A stretch of 64,000 nt of DNA from Naegleria gruberi. Its lineage: Eukaryota. The notes beneath the pieces are model-generated. The model did no database searches and had not been told where the DNA came from. It saw nothing but the letters and a program-made list of their open reading frames with translations. The stretch lies in the NCBI GenBank assembly GCA_000004985.1, contig GG738921.1. The stretch is one strand, 5' to 3'. This document shows positions 28,707 to 64,000 of the stretch, piece after piece; the stretch's first letter is position 1, and each line of letters opens with the position of its first letter. A program made the position numbers and the translations under genes.

Positions 28707-28779
28707 GCCGACATAGCTCAGTTGGGAGAGCGTAAGACTGAAGATCTTAAGGTCCCTGGTTCGATCCCTGGTGTCGGCA
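28707..28779 (+). tRNA. tRNA-Phe(GAA)
   Basis: GCCGACA TA GCTC AGTTGGGA GAGC G TAAGA CTGAAGA TCTTA AGGTC CCTGG TTCGATC CCTGG TGTCGGC A. Canonical Phe D-arm, anticodon GAA, perfect acceptor and anticodon stems. One T:T mismatch in the middle of the T-stem. Confidence 0.75.
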
Positions 28780-28836: not shown

Positions 28837-29662
28837 TAGAGTTCCGGCAAATGCGTATTTTGAAAATGCGCTTTTTTAAAATGCGCATTTTTGGTACTGG
28901 TTTTTTCTGGTAGATATTGAAAGTGGGTATTTGATTAAATTTAGTCAGTGTTTTTCGGTAAATATTGAATTTATTCACTCTTCAACAATTACATCAGAGT
29001 CAATATTGAACATGGATTTTTTTGGCATTACTATATACCTTTGGTTGAAGAAATACTGGTATTTCTATATTCATATCAATTTCCTTTACAGACTTGGTCT
29101 TGAAAGATCCTTTTTTACCTGGTGTTACCAATCCATATGATGCCAATCTATCTTCTTCATCCACACCATGAGAATCAGTTGGCTGAGTTGAAGTGGAATT
29201 TGGATTTTGTGATTGATTTTGTGTAGGATCTGCAGAACTCGAACCAATTTGTATCTAATGAACTGGAACCAAGTTACTATCTCCATGGTAAATATTATGG
29301 AACTAAAGACAACAATGGATCAAGTTTCCGAATTCATACCAGAAAAGGAGAAAGAGTTTGCAGCTTTGGCAGAAACAAAGAAACTACAAAAGAGCTTTTT
29401 CGAATCTCTCAAAAAACCCAAACAAACGGATCAATAATTATCGAAATTAGAAAGAAACTGTTGGGAATAAATTCAATGTTTATCAATTAATTTCGAAAAA
29501 TACCGATTAAACACCATGTGGTGGAACTGGTTTTGATGGGTTCAATAAATTTCGAAAAACGTCGATTGATGGCAATCACCAACACCCACCAAAAAAAACC
29601 GGTACTGAAAATGCGCATTTTTTGAAAATGCGCTTTTTAAATGCGCATTTGCCGGAACTCTA
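28837..29662. mobile_element. MITE-like non-autonomous DNA element (~826 bp) with ~70-bp terminal inverted repeats and no long ORF
   Basis: Left end: TAGAGTTCCGGCAAATGCGTATTTTGAAAATGCGCTTTTTTAAAATGCGCATTTTTGGTACTGG. Right end, as reverse complement: TAGAGTTCCGGCAAATGCGCATTTAAAAAGCGCATTTTCAAAAAATGCGCATTTTCAGTACCGG. Each TIR holds three AAATGCGC(A/T)TTTT subrepeats. Flanks are consistent with a 2-3 bp TSD (TA or AAT). It lies ~57 bp 3' of tRNA-Phe and ~70-110 bp 5' of the next gene start. Confidence 0.65.
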
Positions 29663-34830: not shown

Positions 34831-36136
34831 TTCCATCCTTAATGTTGCCAGTAGAAGAACCACATGTGGCCAATTCACTGCCAGGAGGAGCTGCCAAGTG
34901 TGCCAAAGTAGCTGTTTGTAAAAAGTTAATCATGACATTTTTGCCTCTGTAATTGTGGACATATTCCATGGATGTAGATGTTTTGGCTATAGCCCAAGAA
35001 ATTGAAATTTGTGCATTTGTAAATAAGTGATCCAATGAATCCTTAGTATTGACCAAACGTGTCCATTTCAAATGAAGTTCATAATTTCCACTCACAGATC
35101 TTAATCCTCCATTTTTGGAAATGAAATCTTGAGATGAATCTAATGTTGGTGCTTGAAGATTACCTTGCATGTATGTGTCTAATATAACTGGGTTTCCACT
35201 TGAATCCACATATCCAAACATTGTATCAGCAGTGTCCATTCCAGAGTTGGTTCCATGATTAAATCCAATTGATGCATAGCCATAAATTCCTGTGGCAATC
35301 AATCCAAATTCAATAATTGGTACATTTGCATCATTTGGATTTGTTAAAACTTTCCAATACAATTTCAAAGAATCAGAAGTTCCATAATTAGCAACTAACT
35401 TGTAATTAGCTGTAGGATAATCAGCAGAGTTGACCCACTGAGTTAAAATACTTTGTGAATATCCAGTTTGAAGTGAACAGGTCGAATTACTACTACTAGA
35501 ACCTCCATCCGAAACTACTGGTTGACTTGGCAATACTCCATACTCACCAGTAGCATAACCAGCTGAAAGGAAATTCAAACTTGGACCTTTGCCAGTGCTG
35601 GTATGTCTAACCATTCCAGTACTGGTGGAGTGGAGTGCCCAGGAAGTTTTCATGACTGCATTGGTGAAAATGACATCGTGGGAATCTCCTGTTTTAACGA
35701 AACGTGTCCACTTGATATGTGTCTCACCTGTGGCCGAGTTGTATCCACCATTTCTTTGAAGGATATCATCGGAAGCATCACTCACTGGTGATTGTGGCTT
35801 TGCAACCATCCATGCATCCATGATGGTTACACTTTGAGAAGCACTATTATAATACCCGAAAACTTTATCAATTCATCATCATTAATAATATTAAGTTAAT
35901 ATTGCCAATAACAACTTACTGGTATCACCCTTCATTGGATCTCCATTTAAATAACCAAAGCAAAACGAGACGTAACCTCTCGTGTTTTTGGCCACAGCTC
36001 CAAATTCCAAGATTGCATCATTAATATCAGAGCTTTTTTCATTCCTTAATAATTTCCAATATAGCTTGAGATTGGAACTGAATGTGGCCACATTTCCCGA
36101 TGGATAATCAGTGGAAGATACAAACTGAGTATTCAT
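33248..36136 (-). CDS. DOMON-domain ferric reductase / NADPH-oxidase-like flavocytochrome, copy A; exon 2 33248..35862, intron 35863..35919 (57 nt), exon 1 35920..~36136 with unresolved 5' end (no signal peptide found)
   Basis: Extracellular repeats (NYKLVANYGTSDSLKLYWKVLTNPNDAN..), about 6 TM helices with conserved His (HRWLG..AHG), FAD site HPITVSS, NAD site MFGGGIGITP and CGPEQL. Exon 1 homolog ..VYSQSMNTQFVSSTDYPSGNVATFSSNLKLYWKLL..GDPMKGDT. Upstream in-frame sequence is hydrophilic (..HHHHYKILDTYNNYNTTRRIKGSERK). Confidence 0.7.
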
Positions 36137-40830: not shown

Positions 40831-41177
40831 TCCCCTTTATAATTAGATCCAAAATATTTTACATCATGATCAATTTGTTGATGATTTAATTATTTAATTA
40901 GATCATTTATAATATTTAAATATTCATATGATGATGATGATGATTGATGAGATGGAATAATAAATTTTGATCAATTCCAAGATCATTATATTAATATATT
41001 AATAATATTAAAATTACACACAAATGATCAAAGANNNNNNNNNNNNNNNNNNNNNNNNNNNNNNNNNNNNNNNNNNNNNNNNNNCCATCATCTCCATTTT
41101 CATTCTTTTCATCCTCCAATCCATCACCAAACTCCTTTTTATAAAATAAAAGGAATAATTTAAATTATAATAATTGT

Positions 41178-42484: not shown

Positions 42485-45473
42485 ATGGCGTTTTATGTTA
42501 TTCGAAACTCGCAGCTCTTTCTTCTGTCTGCACTCTTGTTGGTAACAGTTTTAGCATGTCATGACCCAGCACATGCAGCAAACGTTACCTATAGCCAAAG
42601 TATTGAAACTCAATTCGTAAATCCCTCTGATTATCCAGCAACAAACGTTGCCTCTTTCGGTTCGAATCTGAAACTTTATTGGAAACTCTTAAAAAACGAA
42701 AAGAGTTCAGATATTAATAATGCCATTCTAGAATTTGGTGCTGTTGCTCTTCGTACTAAAGGTTACCTTTCCTTTTGTTTTGGTTATTTAAGTGGAGATC
42801 CAATGAAGGGAGATACCAGTAAGTTATTTTTTTATTCGAAAGTTCTAAAGCATTAATATTCAATCTAAAGTCTTTGGTTTCTTCAATCAAGCTTCAGGTA
42901 GCATCACTGTTATGGACGCTTGGATGACTAACAAACCTGCACCACCAACCAGTGATCCCTCTGATGATATCATCCAGAAGAATGGAGGGTTTCGAACAGT
43001 TAATGGAATATCCGAAACTCACATGAAATGGACACGTTTCGTCAAGACCAACGATACTAGAGATGTTGTATTTACTAACACTGCCATGAGAATGTCCTGG
43101 GCTATTCACTCAACTAGTACTTCAATGGTGGAACATACCAGTCAAGGAAGTGGCACAACTGTTAACTTTCTTTCGGCTGGATTCGTAACTGGTGAATATG
43201 GAAAGCTTCCACAACCACCAGTGATTGCAACAGGAGGTGGAAATAACTGTTCACTTCCAACTGGATATTCACAAAGTATTTTAACTCAGTGGGTCAATTC
43301 TGCTGATTATCCTGCAGCTAATTACAAGTTAGTTGCTAATTATGGAACATCTGATTCTTTGAAATTGTATTGGAAAGTTTTGACCAATCCAAATGATGCC
43401 AATAATCCAATTATTGAATTTGGATTGTTGGCTACAGGTATTTATGGTTATGCTTCACTTGGTTTCAATCATGGAGCTAGTTCAGGAATGCAAACTGCTG
43501 ATACCATGTTTGGTTATGTAGATTCAACTGGTAAGGCAGTGATTATTGATGCTTACATGCAAGGAAATTTGCAAGCACCAGCTCCAGACACCACTCAAAA
43601 TTTTATTTCAAGCAATGGTGGTTTGAGATCTGTCAATGGCAATTATGAACTCCATTTGAAATGGACACGTTTGGTAAATACTAAGGACGCTATGGATTAT
43701 ACATTCAGCAATGCACAAATTCCAATTTCATGGGCTCTTTCCAAAACTTCTACTTCCATTACTTCTGTTCACAGTTACAGAGACAAGAATGTCATGATTA
43801 ATTTCATGCAAAATGGAGCTTCCACTGAAATGGCAGCTCCTCCTGGCAGTAGTTTGGCATGTGGATCAAGTAGTGGTTCACAAACTGGAACTGTTGTCAT
43901 TGATGAAGGTTTGAAATTAGCAAATTCCTACAGATGGCATTTGATTGCTACTGCATTCATTTGTGGATTGTTGGTCATTGGTGGATTCTTATTGAGTGTG
44001 ATTGGACCAAGAGTGAATCCAAATCTATTCCTTGATTTGATCTTGTACAGAAGATTGACAAAACAAGTCAATTTGAAATTTATTGGAATTTACATTAATA
44101 CCATTTTAGATTTAACATTGGGTGAAGCTGTTGTAATTTCATGTTATTGGATTCTTGTGGCCATTTGGTTTGCATTTGGATATGTGAATGCAACATCAGC
44201 AGAAGCTGGAAAAGCATTTGCCTCTGTTTGTGTTTTCAATTTTGGATTAATTTTATTTCCAGTCACAAGATATTCAGTTTTACAAGTTTTATTTGGAATT
44301 TCATTTGATAGAGCAATTAAATATCACAGATGGTTGGGTATTTTACAATGGTTTTTTGTAACTGCTCATGGAATTGCAATGGTTGTTCATTATAATGCAT
44401 CTGGATTATATTTAGTTGATGTGACATCTCCAACATTTCCAATTTTGGGAATTATTGCATGGTTTTTCATGACTATACTTTGGTTAATGACATTCCCAGT
44501 CATAAGAAGAAAGTTGTGGGAAGTCTTTTTAATTTCACATGTCATCTTATCCATTTTAATTGTCATTTTATCAATTATTCATGGTTCTGGATATATTAAT
44601 TTATTACCTTATATGGCATTATCAATTTTATTATATCTATTTGATGTATTTTTGAGAGTGGTATTTGGATTTGGTGTTCCAACCAAAATTGATTCAATCA
44701 AATATGATGAAAAGAGTCAAGTTACAACCATTACAATGAGAAAACCATTCCTAACATTTGGTAGTAATCCTTCAATGGGACATTTCATATTCTTATATAT
44801 TCCTGCTGTTTCAAAATATCAACACCATCCAATCACAGTTAGTAGTTGTAAGGAAATTGATGGTGGAATGATTAAAAAGAAGGAATTGGAATTTACAGTT
44901 CATGTCAAGAATTTTGGAAGTGGATGGTCAAAACAAGTTGCAAAAGTTGCTCAAGAGAAGGCTCAATCAGCCAATGAATTAATTTGTAGAGTTGAAGGTG
45001 CTTATGGATCATTATCAGTTCCATTATTGAGATACAAGACAATTGTCATGTTTGGTGGTGGAATTGGTATTACACCAGTTCATTCAATTTATTCACACTT
45101 GTTGGAAAAGAATGTTCAAGATAAGACTGTTTATACTTGTTGGTCAATTCCAACCACTGATATGATTCAAGTATTTCCTCAACTTTTGGAAACGAATGGA
45201 AATAAGAATTTGAAACCAAATATTTTCATTTCCAAAATGAAGGATGAGAATTCACAACAAACAGCATTCATTCATAAAGGAAGAGCCAATCCAAAACAAT
45301 TCTTGGAACAAGTGAAAAAGGAAATGAAAGAAAGAGGAGAATTGAATGCATATGTTGGTGTTTTAGTTTGTGGTCCAGAACAATTGGTAACTTCAGTTTC
45401 GAATGCCATTTGGGATGCAAATGAAAGAAATGGAATTAGATTCCATCTCCATAAGGAAGTTTTTACGTGGTAG
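42485..45473 (+). CDS. DOMON-domain ferric reductase / NADPH-oxidase-like flavocytochrome, copy B (intact, with signal peptide); exon 1 42485..42818, intron 42819..42897 (79 nt), exon 2 42898..45473
   Basis: Signal peptide MAFYVIRNSQLFLLSALLLVTVLACHDPAHA. Duplicated extracellular DOMON-like modules. TM region with His pairs, HPITVSS (FAD), GGGIGITP and CGPEQL (NAD). The GTAAGT..TTCAG junction is phase-1 consistent, giving ..GDTS|SITVMDAWM... Confidence 0.85.
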
Positions 45474-45499
45474 AATAAACACATGTTTCTAATGGAATT
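43900..45499. repeat. Inverted-repeat arm B, partner of 33213..34830
   Basis: See arm A. Nucleotide-level near-identity in reverse-complement orientation includes the 3' UTR. Confidence 0.8.
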
Positions 45500-48252: not shown

Positions 48253-49516
48253 TTTGATGTAATTTTTTTAAAATTTTAATTATAATAAAATTAAAAGATT
48301 TCTTGTTGTGATGGTGATCATCAAATAGTGAAGATTCAGACCATTAGTATTAAAATTCAAGTTTGTTGTTATCAATTAAATCAAACAAATAAAAAATTTG
48401 AAAAAAAAATAATCACTTCATCTCAGCATTGCTGATTATCTTCATCATTTCAATACGGAATACATTGATATTCAATGTACATCATCTTTGGATATCCATC
48501 AATAGTAGAATAGTAATTTTATTGTTTGAAATTTTAATCATCAAGAAATTTAATATCATCATCACTTGGGAAAAATTTCAAATCAATAAATACATCTCGG
48601 ATGTTGTTAGAACAGGTTAATTTGCTGTTCTAATAGTATTTTAAATAGTATTCCGCAAGTTTACTCTTTGAAATTATTTTTAATTTGGCTCAAAGTCGAT
48701 TTTCATCAAAATCATTAAAATCGGCCTATCTACTTGGTCATCACAAAAACCATCAATTGGAGATTGTTCATAATAGTAAATAGTATTTGTGGGGTCAATT
48801 TTGGAGACTGGATCTTTGTCTTCATTGGAATAGATACAAGATTATTTTCAACATGTAATGAATAATACCTCGTCATCTACTTGACCAAATCAAAAACTTT
48901 CTTCTAGTAGTACTATTTATTTTCACAATATATAACATCTTCATCGTTACTTTCTTCAATAGCATTGTCATTGTCATGGTGGAGGTTTCATCACCTATCC
49001 ACACATGTACAATATCGGAACATCATTCCAATATCATGGAGATGCTCCAATAAGTGTGGAGAATCATCCCACCAAGTTTTTTATCTTTAATAAAAGTGTT
49101 TCTCTTTTTTCACACTTTCTCAAGATTTGCAATTGTTCCTTCACATGATACTATTGATTTCAGAATCATATTTTGTTGTTAATTTTCAAAATGGATCATT
49201 ATTTGAGGAGATTTTGAGATACTTGATTTTACAGATCTAATAAAATTGCAGATACATTTTGTAATAACTGCTTAACATGAACTTCTGCAAAATTACAACA
49301 AACAAGCATTCAATAAGGCGGACATTTCCTATTGTCCTCGATGAATATTGATTCTTGAATATATTACTAATGAAAGAATGCGTGCGCAGCAGTATTTTTC
49401 ATTCTCACTAGTATAACCAAGTAGAAGTTTGTTTTAAAAATTTAAAAACTTCAAAAAAAATTAAATCACTTCTCGCCCACAACAAACTTGCAGCAGCACA
49501 TCATTTCTTTAGAAGA

Positions 49517-50593
49517 ATGACAAGTACTGGCACCTCCTCCAGTAATGGTAGAACCATGAAGATTTTGGTAGAGAGGGTTATTATGAATGATAATTCAGCA
49601 ACATCTTCATCTTTGAATACAACAATACCTGATCATTGGGATGTTCCGAAAAATTCATCATCTTCAACATCTTCACCTACTACAGTAGTAATACCTCCAG
49701 AAAAGTTTAAAGATCCTTGGATTGGAGTGAATCATGATAAATCAGTACTCGATGGAATGTCAATGATGAAGGATTTCTTATTTAATTCACCATCAATTCC
49801 GAGTGATGAAGAACTTCCTCAATTGAAACCGAATTGGGATAAATTAATGAACCCTAGTGAGTCTTCTGATGAATATCAAGTGACATGGATTGGACATTCG
49901 ACCTTTCTCATTCAGTACAGAGGTGTAAATATAATAACAGATCCTGTATTTTCAGAGAGATGTAGTCCTTCACAGTATTTTGGTCCAAAGAGAATTAAAC
50001 CAATTCCATTTCCAGATATCTCTAAATTGCCAAAGATTCATTTTGTGATTATATCTCATAATCACTACGATCATTTGGATGAACATGCATTCAAAGAGAT
50101 ACAGAAACATCATGATCCAATTTTCTTGTTACCATTCAAAATGAAATACAAGTGGATGATGAAACATTATTCAAATAGTGATGCCGAGAAGGAAAAACTT
50201 GTAGATTTGGATTGGTGGAAGGAAACTACATTCAAGGTTACAGCTGAGAATCAGACAGTTTCCAATCTGTCATTCGTATGTCTGCCAGCTCAGCATTGGA
50301 GTTCAAGAACAGGGTTTGATAGAAATCACGTCTTGTGGGGTTCTTGGGGATTCAAGTTTGATTATACTGATGGCAATGAGAATGTGACAAGATCTTTCTG
50401 GCATGCAGGTGATACAGGTTACAAGTAAGTAGACTTTTAATATTCATTCCTTAATAATTTTTTCAATAGTGGACAAACATTTAATCAAATTGGAGAACGA
50501 TTTGGTCCAATTGACTTTTCAATGATTCCAATTGGTGCCTATGAACCACGTTGGTTCATGAGTGATCAACATGTTGATCCAGAAGAAGCCATT
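49517..50593 (+). CDS. NAPE-PLD-like metallo-beta-lactamase-fold (zinc) hydrolase; exon 1 49517..50424, intron 50425..50469 (45 nt), exon 2 50470..50593 continuing into N-gap 50594-50867 (3' partial)
   Basis: [32 protein letters not shown] (metal-binding HxHxDH), AGDTGY|N|[40 protein letters not shown]. This closely matches the conserved C-terminal block of animal NAPE-PLD (..[33 protein letters not shown]). The N-terminal ~110 aa are S/T-rich. Confidence 0.8.
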
Positions 50594-50867
50594 NNNNNNN
50601 NNNNNNNNNNNNNNNNNNNNNNNNNNNNNNNNNNNNNNNNNNNNNNNNNNNNNNNNNNNNNNNNNNNNNNNNNNNNNNNNNNNNNNNNNNNNNNNNNNNN
50701 NNNNNNNNNNNNNNNNNNNNNNNNNNNNNNNNNNNNNNNNNNNNNNNNNNNNNNNNNNNNNNNNNNNNNNNNNNNNNNNNNNNNNNNNNNNNNNNNNNNN
50801 NNNNNNNNNNNNNNNNNNNNNNNNNNNNNNNNNNNNNNNNNNNNNNNNNNNNNNNNNNNNNNNNNNN

Positions 50868-50990
50868 GAAAGTAATTTTCTAATTATGAAGAATTGAAAC
50901 ACTATTCATGAATTGTTTGAAATTGTCATCTGTTGCAACAATGGAAGATTTCAATTATAATCATGAACAAATATTTGTGAAAATAAGGCA
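50868..50990 (+). pseudogene. Decayed fragment of a third kinase-HECT gene 3' end (HECT C-terminus) immediately after N-gap
   Basis: Sequence ..TATGAAGAATT-GAAACACTATTCATGAATTGTTTGAAATTGTCATCTGTTGCAACAATGGAAGAT.. encodes (E)TLFMNCLKLSSVATMED. That is near-identical to the C-termini of the two HECT genes (FETLFMNCLRLSSVATMED). It has a 1-nt deletion upstream, in YEEF, that breaks the frame. Confidence 0.5.
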
Positions 50991-51119
50991 GTGACAAATA
51001 TGAATCACAATAAATTTCCACTCTCCTTACTAATTTGTTGTTATTAAATAAAATATTAAATATTCTGGTTTGCGCCAAAATAAATTGTTTAAAAATGTTT
51101 TTGAAAAAAGATCAAAAAA

Positions 51120-54100
51120 ATGTCAACAACATTCGACCAAGTCTTCCATGCAGTTTCGGAAGGAAACATTGAATTTTTGAGACACATTGATTTACGTCCA
51201 TTTATTAATCATGAACAAGATGATCCCGACGATGAAGGTATTGTTACATTATTATGTACAGCGTGCGGCAGAGGACATTTGAAAATTGTAGAATTATTAT
51301 TGAATGTTGATGGAGTTGATGTAAACAAATGTGTATGTTTTCATAGATTAATTATTTGATGTTGAATGTAAATCTTTGAAATTTATATATGAAAATAGGG
51401 ACCGTTGTTTTTTGCTTGCCAAAACGGATACGTAGAAATTGTAAAATTATTGTTGAGTGTTGATGGAATTGATGTTAATCAAATTGTATGTAATAATGGA
51501 ATGAATAATGGAATGGTATATTTATATTAATGATTTTTATGATTATCTATAATAGAGAGTGTTACGTGAAGCATGTGAAAAAGGCTATTTTGAAATTGTA
51601 AAATTATTATTGGACTTTGATGGAATTAATGTTGACGCTTATGTATGTAGCAAATATTAATATTAAGAAGTTTAATATTAATTCTTCTTATTAGAAAGCA
51701 TTGCATGGAGCATGTTATGGAGGGAATTTTAATATTGTAAAATTATTACTTGCCAAGAATGCTCGAATAGGAAAAGAAGAAAGAAAAGAATATGATAAAA
51801 AAATCAAACCGAAAGTAAGTTTAGTTTTCAGATAAGTGTCAAATATAGTCCAATATTAGTTCAATCTCGAATATACTTTGGATGAATTAAAGGATAAAAT
51901 CTCACAATTACGAATTCAACATTGGAGAAATGTGANNNNNNNNNNNNNNNNNNNNNNNNNNNNNNNNNNNNNNNNNNNNNNNNNNNNNNNNNNNNNNNNN
52001 NNNNNNNNNNNNNNNNNNNNNNNNNNNNNNNNNNNNNNNNNNNNNNNNNNNNNNNNNNNNNNNNNNNNNNNNNNNNNNNNNNNNNNNNNNNNNNNNNNNN
52101 NNNNNNNNNNNNNNNNNNNNNNNNNNNNNNNNNNNNNNNNNNNNNNNNNNNNNNNNNNNNNNNNNNNNNNNNNNNNNNNNNNNNNNNNNNNNNNNNNNNN
52201 NNNNNNNNNNNNNNNNNNNNNNNNNNNNNNNNNATAATGATAAGAGAGAGTTGATAAATGAAATTGAAAGAGTTGAAAATAGTTTGAGAGAACATGAAGT
52301 TAATTTTGAATGTTTCCAAAATGTTAACAAATTGAAATTGAAAAAGAAAGATTTGTTCAAGTCACTAGCTGAAATCAAAGACAAAATAGAAGATATTGAA
52401 TATGCTAAAGACACACTTATATTCGAAATTAAAACTCAAAAAAGAAACAAGATTGGTAAAGTTGAGGAAATTGAAAGATTGGAGAAGAAACTTTCTGACA
52501 TGATTCAGGAATTATCAAACATGCACGAAAGAAAATCAGAAATCCAAAACGACTTGATGGAGCTGATTCCTAAATTTCCTGAAATTATTATTGAAATGGA
52601 ACAACCATTAGCAATAGATGGTGTTGTCATTTCATCATCAATGACACCAAAAGAAAAATTCAGAGTATTTGCACTTCAAAACTCTATTTTACTTTTAAAT
52701 ACTCAATTTTCAAATTATACTAACATTCAAACACTTCACACTGGATTATCAGTTGTTTACAAAGCAAGCAAATCTAATAGTCAGGTGGTTATTCTCAAAG
52801 AAATTTCTCTTTCAGAAAATAATTGTGAAACAGTAATGAATGAAATTATGAATTTGGTTATACTCAAAGGTCATCCTAGAATTATCAAATTGAATGGTGT
52901 ATTTATTGAATCACAATTTAATAAGGTTTATATTGAAACACCATATTATTCAAATGGAAATTTACTGGAGTATATCAACAAGATTAGAAATCATCATGAT
53001 TTACCAACTTTGAAGAACATGTTGAGAAGTTTATTTAGAAAAATGACAGAAACACTTCAATTTATCCATTCCAAAGATATTCTGCACAGAGATTTAAAAC
53101 CTCAAAATATTTTGGTGAATGAAAATGGAGAACCAATTATTGCAGATTTTGGATCAAGTAAGAAACTAATTGCTCAATTGACAAATAATACAATGGGAGT
53201 TGGAACATTGAAATATATGGCACCAGAAGTGAAAAGACAAGAAGAATCACCAAGTGAAAAATCAGACATTTGGTCATTGGGTGTTTCATTGTATGAATGT
53301 TGGCAATTGATTCAACAAATAAGTATGATGAATAATGCAACAGTTGAAATATTGAACTTTGACTCGAAGGGTAAGGTAGTTTTACCTACCAGTACTTTGA
53401 ATGATGAAATTGATATAACATTGATGAAAATGTTGAGTCACATGTTCAATAGCAATCCAGAAGACAGACCAAGTTCATTAACACTACTGACAGATTCAGA
53501 TTATTTCACAAATGAAAATCCTACAACAGATATACTTTCTAAATCTAATCAAAAAGAATTGGAAGGTTCTGAAAAGATATCACTTTGGCAAGCAAGATTA
53601 AAGAAGATGAAACAATTTTTGCCTGAAAGCACAGAAGGAGAAATCAAGGTTGACATCTATAGACACCGTCTATTGGAAGATATTGCCTCTATATATAAGG
53701 ATTTGATACCAATAGGGTATTCAGTGATATTTTACAAAACATTTGTGAAATATAAGGGAGAGACTGGAATAGACGCAGGAGGATTATCCAATGAGATGTA
53801 TTCTAAATATATTGAAGCCATACTGGAAAGCAAACATTTTCAAAATAGCGAAAGCTCACCAAATGAAAATTTCATTTTAACTGATGAACCACTCACAGAT
53901 GAATCTAAAAATCAATTGAGAACACTTGGGTTGTTATTGAAAAAGTTATTAATTGACTGTGACGACAAGACAGTTTATCTTCCATTGAATAGCTTTATAT
54001 TTTATTATTTATTGAATGGAAATGCTCTCAACAAAGAAACACTCCAATTTAATGCTATATCCCTTTTACTATCAAAATTCTTGAGAGAATATGATTTTGA

Positions 54101-54773
54101 ATTGGATAATCAAATATTTAGTGTGAAAAAATGTAAAAATGATGAAGAATTACAATCAATTACAATGGAAGAAACATTTATTGATGTTTTATCAAAGAGT
54201 GAGAAACCATTAATAATGGAAAATGTTCAATTATTCATCATTTCACAATTATATTCATATTTTTATTCTGATTTAAAGATTGAAAAATTGAAATTAATCA
54301 AACAAGGATTTGACTGGTTTAATTTGACTAAATTCAAACAAAGCTCAAAATTACCACCCAAGTTGAAAGAATTCCTAGACCTCCAAGGATCAAATTTTGA
54401 TGAGAAGTGTTTGAGTGTGAATGAATTGAAAATTCTCCTCTCAGGTCAATCATATATTGATGCTGATTTATTATTGAATGAAATAGACATGACCAGAATT
54501 TCACCAATAATGCAAGATCACTTCACTAAATGTATTAGAAAATTAACAAAAAGTCAATTGAGACAATTACTTGTTTGGATGACTTCACTTTCAAGCATTC
54601 CAATCAGAGGTTTTTCAAGAAAGATCTCAATTCGTGAATATAACAGATTTGAATCTCATACCTGTTCATTTGTATTTGATATTCCATCTCAAATAACCAA
54701 TTATGAACAATTTGAAACTCAATTCATGAATTGTTTGAGATTGTCATCTGTTGCAACTATGGAAGATCAATAG
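51120..54773 (+). CDS. Ankyrin-repeat / coiled-coil / protein kinase / HECT ubiquitin-ligase multidomain protein (copy A); exons 51120..51332, 51399..51485, 51556..51642, 51695..51814, 51860..(gap 51936-52233)..54773; introns 66, 70, 52, 45 nt
   Basis: Four ANK repeats, one per exon (..GPLFFACQNGYVEIVKLLLSVDGIDVNQI, RVLREACEKGYFEIVKLLLDFDGINVDAY, KALHGACYGGNFNIVKLLLAKNA). A coiled-coil region follows. The kinase domain has VVILKEI (K), HRDLKPQNILV, ADFGSSK, GTLKYMAPE and DIWSLGVSLYE. The HECT domain has GIDAGGLSNEMY and ..FESHTCSFVFDIPSQITNYEQFETQFMNCL, including the catalytic Cys. Confidence 0.8.
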
Positions 54774-55423
54774 GACAATTCTTGTTGGTATTCTTGTCAC
54801 TGCACCAACAGGATTAATTAGAGTATTACTGACTGGTGGTAGTACTTGAGCAATTGGTGGTTGATTCAAATCTACGATCATTATCAGAATTCATTAAAAT
54901 CCAGCTTCTGAAGTGCAGCTTTGATTAGCTTGCCCCAATTCAGTGGAAATTGTTTTTCTTGCATTTGTAAATCATATAATCATCAAATTTAAGGTACTCA
55001 ATTACTTTTGAAGTTTTGGAACTAAGCTGATTTGATATTGTGTTTTTTCTTTGATGGATTGAAATCCTAAGAAGAATTCATGTTATTGCCAACGAACATA
55101 CAACAAGCAACAATAAGGGTAGAACGAGATTGGATGTTTTAAGTGATAATCACTTATTATCCAATAAAAAAAATTCAGCAAATGGCTCTTTGTGTCTGAT
55201 TTTCGGAAGCACACCATCTACCATCTATTTAATTTTTATTGGAGTTCTGATCATTTTGGAATTTATTCTTCATAACCCAATTGGAATCATCATCAATGTT
55301 TTCCAATTATCAAAATAATATTAGTATTTTTGTGGAAATTATTGTATCTATGATTTTACGGTGGTATACAGATATTTCTTTAATATAGCAAAGCATTAAA
55401 GATGATGAAAATTGGAGTGGGTA

Positions 55424-57949
55424 TTAATTCTCCAAAGTGTTCTCCGTATCATTGAAATCTTCCATTGTTGCAACAGATGACAATCTCAAACAATTCATGA
55501 ATAGTGTTTCAAATTCTTCATAAGTGGTTATTTGTGAAGGAATATCAAATGAGAAAGAACATGTATGGGCTTCAAATCTTTTTTGCTCACGAATTGAGAT
55601 CTTTCTTGAAAAACCTCTAATCGGAATGCTTGAAAGTGCTGTCATCCAAACAAGTAATTGTCTCAATTGACTATTTGTTAATTTTCTTATACATTTAGTG
55701 AGGAAATCTTTCATAGTTTCCGAAACAAAATAGAAATTAATTTCATTTAACAATAAATCATCATCAATATATGATTGACCTGATAGGAGAATTTTCAATT
55801 CATTCACACTCAAATCTTGTTCAACAAAGTTTGGTCCTTGAAGGTGGAAAAATTCTCTCAATTCAGATTCAGTTGAAATACTAAAACTACAAATCAATTG
55901 AGTTTTGAATTGTTTCAAATTGAACCAATCAAATCCTTCTTTGATTAATTTCAATTTTTCCATTCTTATAGCACTGTAAAAGTATGGATGTAATTGAGAA
56001 ATGATATAGAGATGGATATTGTCCATAATAAGTGGTTTCTCAGTCTTTGATAAAACATCTGTGAACGTTTCTTCATATGCAATAGATTGTAATTCCTTAT
56101 CATTCTTACATTTTCTCAGATTCATAATTTGATTATCTAATTCAAAATCATATTCTCTCAAGAATTTTGAAAGTGTCAAGATCATGTCATTGATGTGTAG
56201 TGCTTGTTTCTTATAAATTATATCACCATTCAATAAATAATAGAATATAAAACTATTCAATGGAAGATAAACTGTCTTGTCGTCACAGTCAATTAATAAC
56301 TTTTTCAATAACCATCCAAAGGCCTTTAACTGAATTCTTGATTCATCTGTGAGTGGTTCATCAGTTAGAATGAAATTTTCGTTGGAAGATGTTTCACTCT
56401 TTTGAAAATGTTTGCTTTCCATTAACATGGATTCAGTATATTTGGAATAGAGTTCATTTGACAAACCTCCTACGTCTATCCCTTTCTCTTCCTTAAATTT
56501 TACAAATGTTTTGTAAAATATTGAATAGTTGTTATCTTTAGTCATGACTTTTTCAACAGTTAAAGAAGTATCTGTCAATAAATTTTCTCTGTCTATGTCA
56601 AATCTAATTTCGTTGCTAGGTGAAACTAAATAACCTTCTCTTCGGGCTAACGCAAGTTGTTTGAGTTTTTTCAATCTTGCCTGCCACAATGATAACTTTT
56701 CGGAGCTATCTAGTTTTTGATTTGATGTAGAAAGTAATTCGACAGTAATTGGATTTTCATTTGTGAAATAATCTCCATTTTCATTCACCAAAATATTTTG
56801 AGGTTTTAAATCTCTGTGAAGAATATCTTTGGAATGAATAAATTGAAGTGTTTCCGTGATTTTTCTAAATAAACTTCTCAACATGATTTTCAAAGTTTTA
56901 GTGTCGTGTTGAGGTTTAATCTTGTTGACATATTCCAATAAATTTCCATTTGAATAATATGGCGTTTCAATATAAATCTTATTAAAATTAGGTTCGATGA
57001 ACACACCATTCAATTTGATAATTCTTGAATGTACTTTCAATCTTACAATATTCATAATTTCATTCATAATAGCATCACAATTATTGTCTGTTGATTGAGA
57101 AAGTGAAATTTCTTTAAGAATAACCACTTGATTGTTTGACTTGCTTGATTTGTAGACAACTGATAATCCACTATGAACTGTTCCCATGATTGTATAATTT
57201 GAAAATTGAGTATTAAAAAGAAATATTGAGTTTTGAAGTGCAAATATTCTGAATTTTTCTTCAGGTGTGTTGCTTGTTGAAATAACAACACCATCTGCTG
57301 TTAGTGGTTGTTTCATTTCTACAATTATTTCTGGGAATGTTGAAATCAATTCCATTAAATTCTGTTCAATTTCTGTTTTTTGTTCATTCAATTCGGAAAT
57401 CTTTTTTCCCATTTCAGAAAGTTTCTTCTCCAATCTTTCAATATCTTCATTGTTTGTTCCAATTTTGTTTTTTCTAAGCTTTTTAATTTGAAGTCCAATT
57501 TCGTCCTTTTCCAAATCAATTTCATCAATGTCGTCCTTAATTAAGGCAAGTGATTTTAAAAGATCTTTCTTTTTCAATTTCAACTTGTTAATATTTTGAA
57601 AACATTCAAGATTTGTTGCATTTTCTCTAATGTTATCTTCCATTCTCTCAACTTGTTCCAACAATTCCTTGTTGTCCTTATCAAATTCACTTAATTTTCC
57701 AGAATAGTTTGTAATTATTTCGTCTCTAATTCTATCTCTCTCTTCAGTAAGTAGATACAACTCTTTAAATTCAACACTCTTTTCACAAGCGGACATTTCA
57801 GAGATTTGTTTTTCGATTCTATTTAATTCTTTTTTGAGCAAATGAATAGTTTGAGCTGATTTTGGAATTCTCACAACTGGTTCAACAACTGTAATACGAC
57901 TTGCTTCCATTAATTGATTTTCCAAAATTTTGATTCGTTCTAAATGTTC
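55424..57949 (-). CDS. Paralog (copy B) of the coiled-coil / kinase / HECT protein, with an in-frame ~117-codon deletion removing the kinase DFG/activation-loop/APE/C-lobe; 5' end lost in N-gap 57950-62085
   Basis: Same coiled-coil (LECFQNINKLKLKKKDLLKSLALIKDDIDEID..), kinase N-lobe and catalytic loop (VVILKEISL, HRDLKPQNILVNENG). It then jumps directly to DYFTNENPITVELL at about 56775. An intact HECT domain follows: GIDVGGLSNELY, ..FEAHTCSFSFDIPSQITTYEEFETLFMNCL. The ORF remains open into the gap at its 5' side. Confidence 0.75.
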   Translation of the reverse strand, partial: EHLERIKILENQLMEASRITVVEPVVRIPKSAQTIHLLKKELNRIEKQISEMSACEKSVEFKELYLLTEERDRIRDEIITNYSGKLSEFDKDNKELLEQVERMEDNIRENATNLECFQNINKLKLKKKDLLKSLALIKDDIDEIDLEKDEIGLQIKKLRKNKIGTNNEDIERLEKKLSEMGKKISELNEQKTEIEQNLMELISTFPEIIVEMKQPLTADGVVISTSNTPEEKFRIFALQNSIFLFNTQFSNYTIMGTVHSGLSVVYKSSKSNNQVVILKEISLSQSTDNNCDAIMNEIMNIVRLKVHSRIIKLNGVFIEPNFNKIYIETPYYSNGNLLEYVNKIKPQHDTKTLKIMLRSLFRKITETLQFIHSKDILHRDLKPQNILVNENGDYFTNENPITVELLSTSNQKLDSSEKLSLWQARLKKLKQLALARREGYLVSPSNEIRFDIDRENLLTDTSLTVEKVMTKDNNYSIFYKTFVKFKEEKGIDVGGLSNELYSKYTESMLMESKHFQKSETSSNENFILTDEPLTDESRIQLKAFGWLLKKLLIDCDDKTVYLPLNSFIFYYLLNGDIIYKKQALHINDMILTLSKFLREYDFELDNQIMNLRKCKNDKELQSIAYEETFTDVLSKTEKPLIMDNIHLYIISQLHPYFYSAIRMEKLKLIKEGFDWFNLKQFKTQLICSFSISTESELREFFHLQGPNFVEQDLSVNELKILLSGQSYIDDDLLLNEINFYFVSETMKDFLTKCIRKLTNSQLRQLLVWMTALSSIPIRGFSRKISIREQKRFEAHTCSFSFDIPSQITTYEEFETLFMNCLRLSSVATMEDFNDTENTLEN

Positions 57950-60900
57950 NNNNNNNNNNNNNNNNNNNNNNNNNNNNNNNNNNNNNNNNNNNNNNNNNNN
58001 NNNNNNNNNNNNNNNNNNNNNNNNNNNNNNNNNNNNNNNNNNNNNNNNNNNNNNNNNNNNNNNNNNNNNNNNNNNNNNNNNNNNNNNNNNNNNNNNNNNN
58101 NNNNNNNNNNNNNNNNNNNNNNNNNNNNNNNNNNNNNNNNNNNNNNNNNNNNNNNNNNNNNNNNNNNNNNNNNNNNNNNNNNNNNNNNNNNNNNNNNNNN
58201 NNNNNNNNNNNNNNNNNNNNNNNNNNNNNNNNNNNNNNNNNNNNNNNNNNNNNNNNNNNNNNNNNNNNNNNNNNNNNNNNNNNNNNNNNNNNNNNNNNNN
58301 NNNNNNNNNNNNNNNNNNNNNNNNNNNNNNNNNNNNNNNNNNNNNNNNNNNNNNNNNNNNNNNNNNNNNNNNNNNNNNNNNNNNNNNNNNNNNNNNNNNN
58401 NNNNNNNNNNNNNNNNNNNNNNNNNNNNNNNNNNNNNNNNNNNNNNNNNNNNNNNNNNNNNNNNNNNNNNNNNNNNNNNNNNNNNNNNNNNNNNNNNNNN
58501 NNNNNNNNNNNNNNNNNNNNNNNNNNNNNNNNNNNNNNNNNNNNNNNNNNNNNNNNNNNNNNNNNNNNNNNNNNNNNNNNNNNNNNNNNNNNNNNNNNNN
58601 NNNNNNNNNNNNNNNNNNNNNNNNNNNNNNNNNNNNNNNNNNNNNNNNNNNNNNNNNNNNNNNNNNNNNNNNNNNNNNNNNNNNNNNNNNNNNNNNNNNN
58701 NNNNNNNNNNNNNNNNNNNNNNNNNNNNNNNNNNNNNNNNNNNNNNNNNNNNNNNNNNNNNNNNNNNNNNNNNNNNNNNNNNNNNNNNNNNNNNNNNNNN
58801 NNNNNNNNNNNNNNNNNNNNNNNNNNNNNNNNNNNNNNNNNNNNNNNNNNNNNNNNNNNNNNNNNNNNNNNNNNNNNNNNNNNNNNNNNNNNNNNNNNNN
58901 NNNNNNNNNNNNNNNNNNNNNNNNNNNNNNNNNNNNNNNNNNNNNNNNNNNNNNNNNNNNNNNNNNNNNNNNNNNNNNNNNNNNNNNNNNNNNNNNNNNN
59001 NNNNNNNNNNNNNNNNNNNNNNNNNNNNNNNNNNNNNNNNNNNNNNNNNNNNNNNNNNNNNNNNNNNNNNNNNNNNNNNNNNNNNNNNNNNNNNNNNNNN
59101 NNNNNNNNNNNNNNNNNNNNNNNNNNNNNNNNNNNNNNNNNNNNNNNNNNNNNNNNNNNNNNNNNNNNNNNNNNNNNNNNNNNNNNNNNNNNNNNNNNNN
59201 NNNNNNNNNNNNNNNNNNNNNNNNNNNNNNNNNNNNNNNNNNNNNNNNNNNNNNNNNNNNNNNNNNNNNNNNNNNNNNNNNNNNNNNNNNNNNNNNNNNN
59301 NNNNNNNNNNNNNNNNNNNNNNNNNNNNNNNNNNNNNNNNNNNNNNNNNNNNNNNNNNNNNNNNNNNNNNNNNNNNNNNNNNNNNNNNNNNNNNNNNNNN
59401 NNNNNNNNNNNNNNNNNNNNNNNNNNNNNNNNNNNNNNNNNNNNNNNNNNNNNNNNNNNNNNNNNNNNNNNNNNNNNNNNNNNNNNNNNNNNNNNNNNNN
59501 NNNNNNNNNNNNNNNNNNNNNNNNNNNNNNNNNNNNNNNNNNNNNNNNNNNNNNNNNNNNNNNNNNNNNNNNNNNNNNNNNNNNNNNNNNNNNNNNNNNN
59601 NNNNNNNNNNNNNNNNNNNNNNNNNNNNNNNNNNNNNNNNNNNNNNNNNNNNNNNNNNNNNNNNNNNNNNNNNNNNNNNNNNNNNNNNNNNNNNNNNNNN
59701 NNNNNNNNNNNNNNNNNNNNNNNNNNNNNNNNNNNNNNNNNNNNNNNNNNNNNNNNNNNNNNNNNNNNNNNNNNNNNNNNNNNNNNNNNNNNNNNNNNNN
59801 NNNNNNNNNNNNNNNNNNNNNNNNNNNNNNNNNNNNNNNNNNNNNNNNNNNNNNNNNNNNNNNNNNNNNNNNNNNNNNNNNNNNNNNNNNNNNNNNNNNN
59901 NNNNNNNNNNNNNNNNNNNNNNNNNNNNNNNNNNNNNNNNNNNNNNNNNNNNNNNNNNNNNNNNNNNNNNNNNNNNNNNNNNNNNNNNNNNNNNNNNNNN
60001 NNNNNNNNNNNNNNNNNNNNNNNNNNNNNNNNNNNNNNNNNNNNNNNNNNNNNNNNNNNNNNNNNNNNNNNNNNNNNNNNNNNNNNNNNNNNNNNNNNNN
60101 NNNNNNNNNNNNNNNNNNNNNNNNNNNNNNNNNNNNNNNNNNNNNNNNNNNNNNNNNNNNNNNNNNNNNNNNNNNNNNNNNNNNNNNNNNNNNNNNNNNN
60201 NNNNNNNNNNNNNNNNNNNNNNNNNNNNNNNNNNNNNNNNNNNNNNNNNNNNNNNNNNNNNNNNNNNNNNNNNNNNNNNNNNNNNNNNNNNNNNNNNNNN
60301 NNNNNNNNNNNNNNNNNNNNNNNNNNNNNNNNNNNNNNNNNNNNNNNNNNNNNNNNNNNNNNNNNNNNNNNNNNNNNNNNNNNNNNNNNNNNNNNNNNNN
60401 NNNNNNNNNNNNNNNNNNNNNNNNNNNNNNNNNNNNNNNNNNNNNNNNNNNNNNNNNNNNNNNNNNNNNNNNNNNNNNNNNNNNNNNNNNNNNNNNNNNN
60501 NNNNNNNNNNNNNNNNNNNNNNNNNNNNNNNNNNNNNNNNNNNNNNNNNNNNNNNNNNNNNNNNNNNNNNNNNNNNNNNNNNNNNNNNNNNNNNNNNNNN
60601 NNNNNNNNNNNNNNNNNNNNNNNNNNNNNNNNNNNNNNNNNNNNNNNNNNNNNNNNNNNNNNNNNNNNNNNNNNNNNNNNNNNNNNNNNNNNNNNNNNNN
60701 NNNNNNNNNNNNNNNNNNNNNNNNNNNNNNNNNNNNNNNNNNNNNNNNNNNNNNNNNNNNNNNNNNNNNNNNNNNNNNNNNNNNNNNNNNNNNNNNNNNN
60801 NNNNNNNNNNNNNNNNNNNNNNNNNNNNNNNNNNNNNNNNNNNNNNNNNNNNNNNNNNNNNNNNNNNNNNNNNNNNNNNNNNNNNNNNNNNNNNNNNNNN

Positions 60901-62754
60901 NNNNNNNNNNNNNNNNNNNNNNNNNNNNNNNNNNNNNNNNNNNNNNNNNNNNNNNNNNNNNNNNNNNNNNNNNNNNNNNNNNNNNNNNNNNNNNNNNNNN
61001 NNNNNNNNNNNNNNNNNNNNNNNNNNNNNNNNNNNNNNNNNNNNNNNNNNNNNNNNNNNNNNNNNNNNNNNNNNNNNNNNNNNNNNNNNNNNNNNNNNNN
61101 NNNNNNNNNNNNNNNNNNNNNNNNNNNNNNNNNNNNNNNNNNNNNNNNNNNNNNNNNNNNNNNNNNNNNNNNNNNNNNNNNNNNNNNNNNNNNNNNNNNN
61201 NNNNNNNNNNNNNNNNNNNNNNNNNNNNNNNNNNNNNNNNNNNNNNNNNNNNNNNNNNNNNNNNNNNNNNNNNNNNNNNNNNNNNNNNNNNNNNNNNNNN
61301 NNNNNNNNNNNNNNNNNNNNNNNNNNNNNNNNNNNNNNNNNNNNNNNNNNNNNNNNNNNNNNNNNNNNNNNNNNNNNNNNNNNNNNNNNNNNNNNNNNNN
61401 NNNNNNNNNNNNNNNNNNNNNNNNNNNNNNNNNNNNNNNNNNNNNNNNNNNNNNNNNNNNNNNNNNNNNNNNNNNNNNNNNNNNNNNNNNNNNNNNNNNN
61501 NNNNNNNNNNNNNNNNNNNNNNNNNNNNNNNNNNNNNNNNNNNNNNNNNNNNNNNNNNNNNNNNNNNNNNNNNNNNNNNNNNNNNNNNNNNNNNNNNNNN
61601 NNNNNNNNNNNNNNNNNNNNNNNNNNNNNNNNNNNNNNNNNNNNNNNNNNNNNNNNNNNNNNNNNNNNNNNNNNNNNNNNNNNNNNNNNNNNNNNNNNNN
61701 NNNNNNNNNNNNNNNNNNNNNNNNNNNNNNNNNNNNNNNNNNNNNNNNNNNNNNNNNNNNNNNNNNNNNNNNNNNNNNNNNNNNNNNNNNNNNNNNNNNN
61801 NNNNNNNNNNNNNNNNNNNNNNNNNNNNNNNNNNNNNNNNNNNNNNNNNNNNNNNNNNNNNNNNNNNNNNNNNNNNNNNNNNNNNNNNNNNNNNNNNNNN
61901 NNNNNNNNNNNNNNNNNNNNNNNNNNNNNNNNNNNNNNNNNNNNNNNNNNNNNNNNNNNNNNNNNNNNNNNNNNNNNNNNNNNNNNNNNNNNNNNNNNNN
62001 NNNNNNNNNNNNNNNNNNNNNNNNNNNNNNNNNNNNNNNNNNNNNNNNNNNNNNNNNNNNNNNNNNNNNNNNNNNNNNNNNNNNNAAAAATAAATGAGAT
62101 GGAGTATATTCTATATGTTGAAATATGACAATTTGACAGATTGTTATTATTATCATATTGAATTCGATTCTAAAACACTAAAAATGATACCAGTTGTATA
62201 TCAGTGTGACTAAACGTACATGGTAAAGTTACACGATAATAGGATGTACTTTCATTGAGATAGAGTGTACACTTGGATATAATCACTCTTGACATTGAAC
62301 ATTTACTGATTGACTGAATGTAAGTTTCATGAATTGTTTCAAAACGTATATAGATGTATATAAATGATGTATATAATGTGTGTTATCAATTCTAGACTAA
62401 TTTCATATAAAATAAGTGAGTTGGAGCATAATCTTTGATTTTATGTCAAAGTTCTATAGTAAAATGATAGAGTTGACAACTCAATATCTACTGAACCAAT
62501 ATTCATGAAATTGATATCATATGCTAATTAGAGTGTCTACATATCATGGTATTAATTTCAGTGAAAATAGAGTTGTTTCTGGTCCCTTCAGATTTCCATC
62601 CATTCTCCTGACAAATCACCATGTACTATCCACTGGATGTATTTCTTGAAATGAAATTATATAATTTGATGAAAGTACACTTTATTTGAGATGTAGAACT
62701 CGATATTATCATTTATTTTGAGATTAGTAACTTTTCCTAAAGTGTCATCCTTAG

Positions 62755-62943
62755 TTGGGTTTGGGTTTGGGTTTGGGTTTGGGTTTGGGTTTGGGTTTGG
62801 GTTTGGGTTTGGGTTTGGGTTTGGGTTTGGGTTTGGGTTTGGGTTTGGGTTTGGGTTTGGGTTTGGGTTTGGGTTTGGGTTTGGGTTTGGGTTTGGGTTT
62901 GGGTTTGGGTTTGGGTTTGGGTTTGGGTTTGGGTTTGGGTTGA
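62755..62943 (+). repeat. (GGGTTT)n / (TTTGGG)n telomere-type hexamer tract (~31 units), internal, followed by 50-nt N-gap
   Basis: Perfect tandem GTTTGG repeats begin at ..CCTTAGTTGGG|TTTGGG. Unique AT-rich sequence lies 5' of it. G-rich strand is on +, running 5' to 3' toward the window end. Confidence 0.85.
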
Positions 62944-62993
62944 NNNNNNNNNNNNNNNNNNNNNNNNNNNNNNNNNNNNNNNNNNNNNNNNNN

Positions 62994-63636
62994 GATTTTA
63001 CAGATCTAATAAAATTGCAGATACATTTTGTAATAACTGCTTAACATGAACTTCTGCAAAATTACAACAAGTCTATTGAACCAACAAGTTGCTGAAACAA
63101 GCATTCAATAAGGCGGACATTTCCTATTGTCCTCGATGAATTATTGATTCTTGAATATATTACTAATGAAAGAATGCGTGCGCAGCATATTTTTCATTCT
63201 CAAGTAACCAAGTAGAAGTTTGTTTTAAAAAATTTAACAACTCCAAAAAAAATTAAATCACTTCTCGCCCACAACAAACTTGCAGCAGCACATCATTTCT
63301 TTAGAAGAATGACAAGTACTGGCACCTCCTCCAGTAATGGTAGAACCATGAAGATTTTGGTAGAGAGGGTTATTATGAATGATAATTCAACAACATCATC
63401 TTTGAATACAACAATACCTGATCATTGGGATGTTCCGAAAAATTCATCATCTTTGGCATCTTCAACATCTTCACCTACTACAGTAGTAATACCTCCAGAA
63501 AAGTTTAAAGATCCTTGGATTGGAGTGAATCATGATAAATCAGTACTCGATGGAATGTCAATGATGAAGGATTTCTTATTTAATTCACCATCAATTCCGA
63601 GTGATAAAGAACTTCCTCAATTGAAACCGAATTGGG
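62994..63636 (+). repeat. Subtelomeric duplicate (~640 bp, ~96% identical) of 49225..49838 = NAPE-PLD promoter, 5' UTR and first ~107 codons, truncated and capped by telomere repeats
   Basis: Collinear with 49225-49838. Small differences are 26-bp and 9-bp in-frame insertions and a few substitutions (e.g. GATGAAGAA to GATAAAGAA). The identity ends at CCGAATTGGG, where the original continues ATAAATTAATG and the copy continues TTTGGGTTTGGG. Confidence 0.85.
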
Positions 63637-64000
63637 TTTGGGTTTGGGTTTGGGTTTGGGTTTGGGTTTGGGTTTGGGTTTGGGTTTGGGTTTGGGTTTG
63701 GGTTTGGGTTTGGGTTTGGGTTTGGGTTTGGGTTTGGGTTTGGGTTTGGGTTTGGGTTTGGGTTTGGGTTTGGGTTTGGGTTTGGGTTTGGGTTTGGGTT
63801 TGGGTTTGGGTTTGGGTTTGGGTTTGGGTTTGGGTTTGGGTTTGGGTTTGGGTTTGGGTTTGGGTTTGGGTTTGGGTTTGGGTTTGGGTTTGGGTTTGGG
63901 TTTGGGTTTGGGTTTGGGTTTGGGTTTGGGTTTGGGTTTGGGTTTGGGTTTGGGTTTGGGTTTGGGTTTGGGTTTGGGTTTGGGTTTGGGTTTGGGTTTG
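63634..64000 (+). repeat. Terminal (GGGTTT)n telomere-type repeat tract running to the end of the window (at least 60 units)
   Basis: Uninterrupted GGGTTT hexamers from 63634 to 64000. G-rich strand is oriented 5' to 3' toward the right end, as expected for a right-arm chromosome terminus. Confidence 0.85.

Follow-up and report, generated by a model that had tools for sequence, protein, structure and literature searches.

Healing of subtelomeric breaks by newly added telomeres is textbook knowledge in yeast, Plasmodium, humans and ciliates. Yeast chromosome ends show the order X-(TG1-3)-Y'-(TG1-3)n, the boundaries of human subtelomeric duplicons are marked by internal (TTAGGG)n tracts, and programmed fragmentation with de novo telomere addition takes place in ciliate macronuclei and in Ascaris-type DNA elimination. 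To our knowledge the telomere biology of the Heterolobosea is essentially unstudied, and the only published statement that we found names TTTGGG as a candidate repeat. Here we describe a stretch of 64,000 nucleotides from the heterolobosean Naegleria gruberi (GenBank assembly GCA_000004985.1, contig GG738921.1), referred to as the window, at whose end a near-identical copy of the 5' part of a metallo-beta-lactamase (MBL)/NAPE-PLD-like gene passes directly into telomere repeats. We regard this junction, with good support and considerable confidence, as a product of de novo telomere addition (chromosome healing). Telomere healing has been described to start where 3-6 nt pair with the telomerase template and often yields truncated genes fused to repeats (PMC5550746), and neotelomeres in human cancer genomes have been recognized as repeats at breakpoints in unique sequence (PMC11293586).

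In the intact gene the sequence TTGGG occupies 49834-49838 (plus strand, codons 106-108), and it is here that the copy switches to repeats. The same five bases in the copy (63632-63636, plus strand), the presumed site of neotelomere addition, are the last that it has in common with the progenitor and the first in the repeat register, so that they belong to gene and repeat alike. Copy and progenitor are identical through ...CCGAATTGGG, after which the copy continues with TTTGGG and the progenitor with ATAAATT, confirming the claim of the initial annotation that the copy stops exactly at ..CCGAATTGGG|TTTGGG while the original reads on as ..CCGAATTGGG|ATAAATT. Beyond the junction the progenitor reads GGGATAAATT and the copy GGGTTTGGG; following CCGAATTGGG the progenitor stays in frame (ATAAATTAATG) while the corresponding stretch of the copy is TTTGGGTTTGGG. 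When all 57,014 N-free positions in the non-telomeric part of the window were scanned, a seed of at least 5 nt in register with (TTTGGG)n was present at 410 (0.72%), and because such seeds are this scarce, a random break or a chimera would rarely give a junction of this kind. The copy is oriented as expected for a terminal deletion of the same arm, with the proximal part retained and the repeats distal. The junction thus combines the sequence features of a neotelomere: direct fusion of repeats to unique sequence, standard orientation of the repeats, and a seed in register.

That no healed end exists, and that the small contig carrying the copy (62994-64000), or the junction within it, is an artefact arising from a chimeric clone, a chimeric read or a mis-consensus of gene sequence and telomere reads, was judged very improbable indeed. 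With a length of about one or two Sanger reads and a place at the end of a gappy scaffold, this contig might be suspected of being an artefact, but a random chimera would show a seed of at least 5 nt with a probability of ~0.007 and would point outward, as it should, in just one case out of two, and real differences from the progenitor (indels of 26 bp, 9 bp and 3 bp) mark a distinct genomic molecule.

The agent of the healing is most naturally taken to be telomerase, as the initial annotation proposed when it described a break in the gene healed from a fortuitous TTGGG. The footprint and the rarity of such seeds bear this out as far as healing is concerned; the part of telomerase is deduced from the form of the junction, and microhomology-mediated capture of an existing telomere, which would leave an identical junction, weighs against it. 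Recombination or end-joining with an existing telomere via the TTGGG microhomology would find a precedent in human cancer, where the microhomology at most neotelomere junctions amounts to 0-3 nt and end-joining or capture was judged a better fit than strict pairing with the template (PMC11293586). Five nucleotides of in-register homology followed by regular repeats from the first unit are instead the classic signature of telomerase, healing that starts by annealing of 3-6 nt to the template has been described (PMC5550746), and we consider capture unlikely. This estimate is conditional on the healing being real, is compatible with either of the chromosomal arrangements discussed below, and is not additive to the other rival explanations. 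A literature search for a Naegleria TERT returned nothing usable, and scans for Rfam families and tRNAs gave no match in the chromosome-end region.

Among described cases, subtelomeric healing in Plasmodium falciparum is similar in its short template-matching seed and in the loss of a dispensable distal subtelomere, and there too the event arises in cultured clonal lines (PMC5550746). The present locus differs in belonging to the Heterolobosea, in its repeat TTTGGG, and in that the terminal position is deduced from a draft assembly. P. falciparum is haploid, whereas here the assembly also holds the gene in its intact form, which makes the genome heterozygous or mosaic. Neotelomeres of human cancers (PMC11293586) and constitutional terminal deletions (PMC4427916, PMC3136441) likewise show repeats in standard orientation from a breakpoint in unique sequence, although the seed here, at 5 nt, exceeds the usual 0-3 nt of the cancer junctions (PMC11293586).

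Both repeat tracts were delimited with Tandem Repeats Finder. The terminal (TTTGGG)n tract (63637-64000, plus strand) runs to the final base of the window and, with the seed included (63632-64000, plus strand), comprises 61.5 copies over 369 bp (100% matches, score 738), in agreement with the earlier description of more than 60 perfect outward GGGTTT repeats at the window end. An inner (GGGTTT)n tract is located at 62755-62941 on the same strand (period 6, 31.2 copies, 100% matches, score 374). It had been delimited as 62755-62943; the tract is indeed there, but its perfect repeats stop at 62941 and GA follows. In both tracts the G-rich strand reads 5' to 3' toward the window end. Over the whole window the 12-mer GGGTTTGGGTTT occurred 90 times against 0.21 expected, confined to the two tracts, and in the rest of the 64-kb window no further TTGGGG, TTAGGG, TTTAGGG or TTTTGGGG array was found. 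In 2013 genome data had already led to the publication of TTTGGG as a candidate for the telomeric repeat in N. gruberi (PMC3622300). Because the arrays are perfect, run with the G strand outward, lie only at the window end and consist of this published motif, their identity as telomere repeats, and with it the reading of the terminal tract as the telomere motif of N. gruberi, is supported. The proposal to record GGGTTT/TTTGGG as the telomere motif of this organism was therefore right as to the motif, though not as to its novelty. A non-telomeric microsatellite was considered and rejected on the grounds of orientation, location only at the window end and the published motif. As the 64-kb window, taken from a scaffold of 207,235 bp, ends within the 369-bp tract, base 64000 is probably the scaffold end.

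The inner tract showed no degenerate repeats, being 100% regular, whereas an old internal tract would be expected to be degenerate; if internal at all, it is recent. The TTGGG with which it starts (62755-62759) had been taken as a sign that the tract begins in the same way as the terminal one, after AGTTGGG. This comparison does not hold, because there is no reference copy of the flank and the five bases are merely the incomplete first unit of a TTTGGG array; they carry no information.

The segment from which the copy derives, or to which it is allelic, lies at 49225-49838 on the plus strand and covers codons 1-107 of the MBL/NAPE-PLD-like gene together with the 292 bp that precede them. Its near-identical counterpart at 62994-63636, also on the plus strand, is 643 bp long and comprises 315 bp of upstream sequence, an ATG at 63309 and 109 codons. 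The extent first assigned to the copy, the 5' region and about 107 codons, was thus correct, 107 being the count in the original segment and 109 that in the copy. Alignment of the two gave 602 matches, 4 substitutions and 7 indels totalling 45 gap columns, or 99.3% identity over aligned bases and 92.5% with gap columns counted; the copy of 640 bp and ~96% identity reported initially is real, with a percentage that falls between these two values. Upstream of the ATG there were one 26-bp indel, four indels of 1-2 bp and 2 substitutions, the 26-bp indel being an insertion specific to the copy (63069-63094). The coding sequence carried 2 substitutions, both non-synonymous (A28T and E99K), and two indels, -3 and +9, both in frame and in a Ser-rich low-complexity stretch. 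We rejected the idea that in-frame indels are a sign of selection, since this Ser-codon stretch is prone to slippage and two substitutions allow no dN/dS. Because of the large indels in the copy (26 bp, 9 bp and 3 bp) sequencing error is excluded, and the copy is a distinct genomic molecule. By self-BLAST, 49225-49838 had a single near-identical repeat in the window, 62994-63636, and the two form by far the youngest repeat pair of the window, the other pairs being 92.5% and ~80% identical.

NEG-M, the reference strain, presumably has a heterozygosity of ~0.6% and a higher ploidy, figures that do not enter the evidence here. The copy diverges from its progenitor by 0.66% substitutions together with slippage-type and short indels, and Naegleria has been described as mainly a heterozygous diploid with aneuploidy and loss of heterozygosity (PMC9928731). 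Since the divergence is of the grade of alleles and the organism is described as a heterozygous diploid, we infer that the broken molecule is probably the other homologue, or another copy of the chromosome, and not a recent copy of the assembled allele. The term "subtelomeric duplicate" used in the initial annotation may therefore be wrong: the divergence fits a second allele, and the segment may be unduplicated in any one chromosome.

An older segmental duplication that left a truncated paralogue at the end of another chromosome, mis-scaffolded here via common telomere-repeat reads, would be in keeping with the other dispersed and inverted duplications of the window (92.5% and ~80% identity), which indicate that duplication is active here, and pure-repeat reads are able to link any two telomere-bearing contigs. 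The substitution identity of 99.3% is, however, far above the 80-92% of these other pairs, chance landing on the scaffold of the progenitor is unlikely among dozens of chromosome ends, and no second near-identical protein was found in the database, where the next match is at 60%. A paralogue is thus quite improbable.

The arrangement of the two tracts depends on the contigs at the scaffold end. The first, contig A (62086-62943, plus strand), is 858 bp long and made up of 669 bp of unique sequence, 187 bp of repeats and the two bases GA. Its unique flank (62086-62754, plus strand) lies behind a 4136-N gap, is AT-rich and poor in open reading frames (ORFs), with a single one of 70 aa, and gave no match elsewhere in the window by self-BLAST. 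A gap of 50 N follows at 62944-62993, placed as the initial annotation had it between inner tract and copy, and of placeholder or minimum size. Contig B (62994-64000, plus strand) has 1007 bp, namely 638 bp of unique sequence and 369 bp of repeats including the seed. The closing GA of contig A (62942-62943, plus strand), two non-repeat bases, is the same as the first two bases of contig B: A ends ...GGGTTGA, B starts GATTTT, and the progenitor reads cTTGATTTT, with TTGA at 49223-49226. An overlap of contig ends of at least 2 nt was found at only one of the eight gaps in the window, that between A and B, with a chance expectation of ~1/16 to 1/8. Three of the eight N-runs are exactly 50 N long (1333-1382, 41035-41084 and 62944-62993), and a lone N stands at 1468. 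The two other 50-N gaps have no end overlap, and a 50-N gap as a sign of abutting contigs was accordingly rejected; 50 N is apparently a floor or placeholder of the scaffolder, and gap sizes in the scaffold are not measured distances.

The initial annotation had asked whether an interstitial telomere tract exists here or whether the scaffolder had joined two chromosome ends. This was the right question. The only link between A and B is the GA overlap with the TT microhomology. We slightly and tentatively prefer the second answer, that the healed end is a separate, truncated version of the same arm which the scaffolder stacked behind the full-length end. The healing itself, which we hold with considerable confidence, most likely ran as follows: one copy of the arm broke in exon 1 of the MBL/NAPE-PLD-like gene, or was resected back to there, its 3' end ...AATTGGG paired with the telomerase template, and (TTTGGG)n was added directly to form a neotelomere. 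All distal DNA, at least 12.9 kb of ORF-poor, repeat-rich subtelomere, was thereby deleted. In the preferred arrangement, junction reads that could not be merged with the intact allele would then have given a contig no larger than a read or so, with 640 bp of unique sequence followed by repeats, which the scaffolder would have placed behind the full-length end with a 50-N placeholder, the inner tract being the telomere of that full-length end. To the left of the healed junction, allelic upstream sequence carrying the 26-bp insertion would be expected (...GAGATACTTGATTTTACAG; ...TTTGAGATACTTGATTTTACAG).

With about 650 bp of unique sequence apiece, followed by repeats, contigs A and B are as large as one would expect of Sanger-read clusters that are anchored on a telomere junction. 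Two separate molecules are favoured because the 187-bp tract is shorter than a Sanger read, so that spanning reads should have merged A and B, which were not merged. Counting for the same reading are the lack of repeats on the left side of contig B and the perfection of the inner tract, although the adjoining copy has 11 differences per 640 bp. Poor assembly of the distal region fits reduced (hemizygous) coverage, and the loss of this region should be tolerated because it holds almost no long ORFs. Several observations weigh on the other side. B was placed on the scaffold that holds its progenitor and follows A immediately, across a gap of minimum size, whereas the mates of a truncated homologue should point to ~41-47 kb. 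The GA of A equals the first bases of B and, with the preceding TT, reproduces the TTGA of the progenitor, as a read-supported junction would. The distal density of gaps can equally be explained by an inverted repeat with 2.5-kb arms together with low GC. In exact-pattern scans of Joint Genome Institute (JGI) metagenome contigs, neither the A-to-B junction GGGTTTGGGTTGATTTTACAGATCTAAT nor the copy-specific 26-bp insertion had a match (0 for each). Nanopore reads and a Flye assembly of N. gruberi are publicly available (PMC12695648).

The alternative is an end stacked in cis. Here the unique flank, (TTTGGG)31, the 643-bp gene fragment and the terminal telomere would follow one another on one chromosome, a possibility that we take seriously but hold to be doubtful. 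The order expected is then unique sequence at 62.1-62.75 kb, a short (TTTGGG)n and GATTTTACAGATC, and in full an inner tract of ~31 units, GATTTTACAG..., CCGAATTGGG and a long (TTTGGG)n. In this history a truncated homologue would first have been healed. The full-length homologue would then have gained, at its short telomere, the last ~0.6 kb of the healed one with the neotelomere: a small acentric terminal fragment may have been attached by end-joining, or microhomology-primed break-induced replication may have copied the donor from TT/TTG (49223-49225) to its end. This would create a nascent subtelomeric duplicon with an internal telomere tract at its boundary. In keeping with this, B stands right after A with a minimum gap while the progenitor lies on the same scaffold 13 kb away, the 2-nt GA overlap with TT microhomology is what a true junction would give, and differences of allelic grade are in line with a donor located on the other homologue. 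An extra truncated homologue would moreover create a branch point for the assembler at this place and so explain why both contigs stop there. Internal telomere tracts of no more than a few hundred bp that are joined to a broken fragment have been documented, as have neotelomeres joined to sequence of other origin (PMC11293586). On the other hand, at least two rare events are required, Sanger reads should span a 187-bp tract and yet A and B are unmerged, and the left end of B is without a telomere repeat. The GA overlap has a chance of 1/16 to 1/8 at contig ends that are error-prone, and 50 N is, to judge from the other 50-N gaps, no sign of overlap. That the tracts lie in cis and that a subtelomeric duplicon was thus caught at birth, a healed terminal fragment having moved onto the short telomere of the other homologue, we think rather improbable.

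If the scaffold is right, the end would resemble those of yeast and human chromosomes in having an internal tract, a block copied from elsewhere and a terminal telomere. It differs from them in that the block belongs to an ordinary single-copy gene, of which it holds 0.64 kb, and not to a repeated subtelomeric family, and in that the tract is perfect and not degenerate. A possible inner tract of ~190 bp joined to foreign sequence also matches the classes "short telomere fused to broken fragment" and "neotelomere fused to another site" of the human cancer study (PMC11293586), where the structures were proven by reads spanning the repeats, while here a 50-N gap interrupts the sole candidate span. 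Programmed fragmentation has in common with this locus the addition of repeats onto non-telomeric sequence. The present case is, in contrast, a single event, with no evidence of recurrence, of a somatic/germline distinction or of a break-site signal. Ciliate macronuclear fragmentation, suggested by the use of TTGGGG/TTTGGG in Paramecium, was rejected, as Gln is encoded by CAA/CAG, in-frame TAA/TAG are absent and the protein match is to Naegleria gruberi.

The intact gene begins with an exon 1 ORF at 49517-50425 (plus strand) of 303 aa (P0001; 100% identity to a predicted protein of Naegleria gruberi), and resumes after a short intron, until the gap at 50594-50867 interrupts it. Its homologues are named NAPE-PLD and it has the features of a metallo-beta-lactamase-fold protein: with the gathering score as domain threshold, the intact copy matched PF12706 (Lactamase_B_2) at residues 138-302 with 61.5 bits against a cut-off of 27, and PF13483 (Lactamase_B_3) at residues 121-236 with 41.2 bits against a cut-off of 24. 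On these domain matches it is predicted to be a NAPE-PLD-like hydrolase of the metallo-beta-lactamase fold. The next database match of P0001 was at 60%, with no second near-identical protein there, and its cluster had one member, on one contig. The ORF of the truncated copy (63309-64000, plus strand) is not closed by a stop codon; it carries on into the repeats, where it encodes (VW)n. Its 109-aa fragment contained no Pfam domain, the MBL domain beginning only at residues 121-138. Lacking a stop codon and stopping short of the catalytic domain, the copy might at most yield a non-stop transcript of a low-complexity N-terminal extension, and its annotation as a gene is not warranted. It had been noted that the copy retains its promoter and start codon and could express an N-terminal fragment. 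The 315 bp of upstream sequence and the ATG are indeed kept, but the case for expression is weak given an ORF without a stop that runs into (VW)n and 109 codons without an enzyme domain.

Distal of the hydrolase gene, apparently the last substantial gene of this arm, the character of the window changes sharply. Proximal of 49839 it is gene-dense with long ORFs. From 49839 to 62754 there is hardly any ORF of more than 90 aa, the sole recognized feature being fragments of ankyrin repeats at 51105-51356. The GC content of this region is ~0.28-0.31 in its N-free parts, against a window mean of 0.336, lower values being deflated by N runs, and 36% of its bases are N. Three gaps with 4708 N lie in the 12.9 kb distal of the break point, compared with four gaps and 889 N in the 49.8 kb proximal of it. 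At 52234-54767 and 55457-57681 there is a diverged inverted repeat with arms of ~2.5 kb that are 71-88% complementary and a spacer of 689 bp; it starts at the edge of the gap at 51936-52233, within the ORF-poor distal region. This palindrome, a likely cause of the assembly gaps nearby, may have been left by a fold-back or breakage-fusion-bridge event close to the end of the chromosome. A sequence of ~70-77 bp at 50882-50959, beside the gap at 50594-50867, recurs at 54699-54767 and 55447-55523 with 91-97% identity; the recurrences sit at both inner ends of the palindrome arms and are far better conserved than the arms themselves.

Elsewhere in the window, an inverted pair of paralogous genes (33222-35480 and 43247-45499) is 92.5% identical over 2.27 kb. 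Their ORFs of 874 aa each (33251-35872, minus strand, and 42849-45470, plus strand) have DOMON, ferric-reductase transmembrane and FAD/NAD-binding domains and are NOX/ferric-reductase-like. Short tandem arrays of the palindromic motif AAATGCGCATTT were found at 28849-28892 (period 15) and 29606-29650 (period 17). The two AAATGCGCATTT arrays are inverted, ~0.7 kb apart and situated just downstream of tRNA-Phe (28707-28779), between two protein-coding ORFs, and may be a shared regulatory element. The tRNA genes for Arg (CCT; 16089-16160) and Phe (GAA; 28707-28779) were the only Rfam/ARAGORN matches in the window.

The junction described here is a fresh example, from a little-studied lineage, of a well-known event, and it lies where the draft assembly is unreliable. 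Users of the reference, a JGI Sanger draft, should not rely on the last 2 kb of the scaffold; in the reference strain NEG-M the junction is a marker of a heterozygous terminal deletion or of a stacked end. A clean healing junction gives functional support to the view that the cell adds TTTGGG to DNA ends, and ...AATTGGG-3' is a natural primer for assaying the telomerase of Naegleria. Should the transfer of a healed fragment onto the other homologue be true, and such transfers frequent, then breakage, healing at TTGGG-type seeds and end transfer would be a mechanism behind the karyotype variability between strains and the aneuploidy that have been reported for Naegleria.

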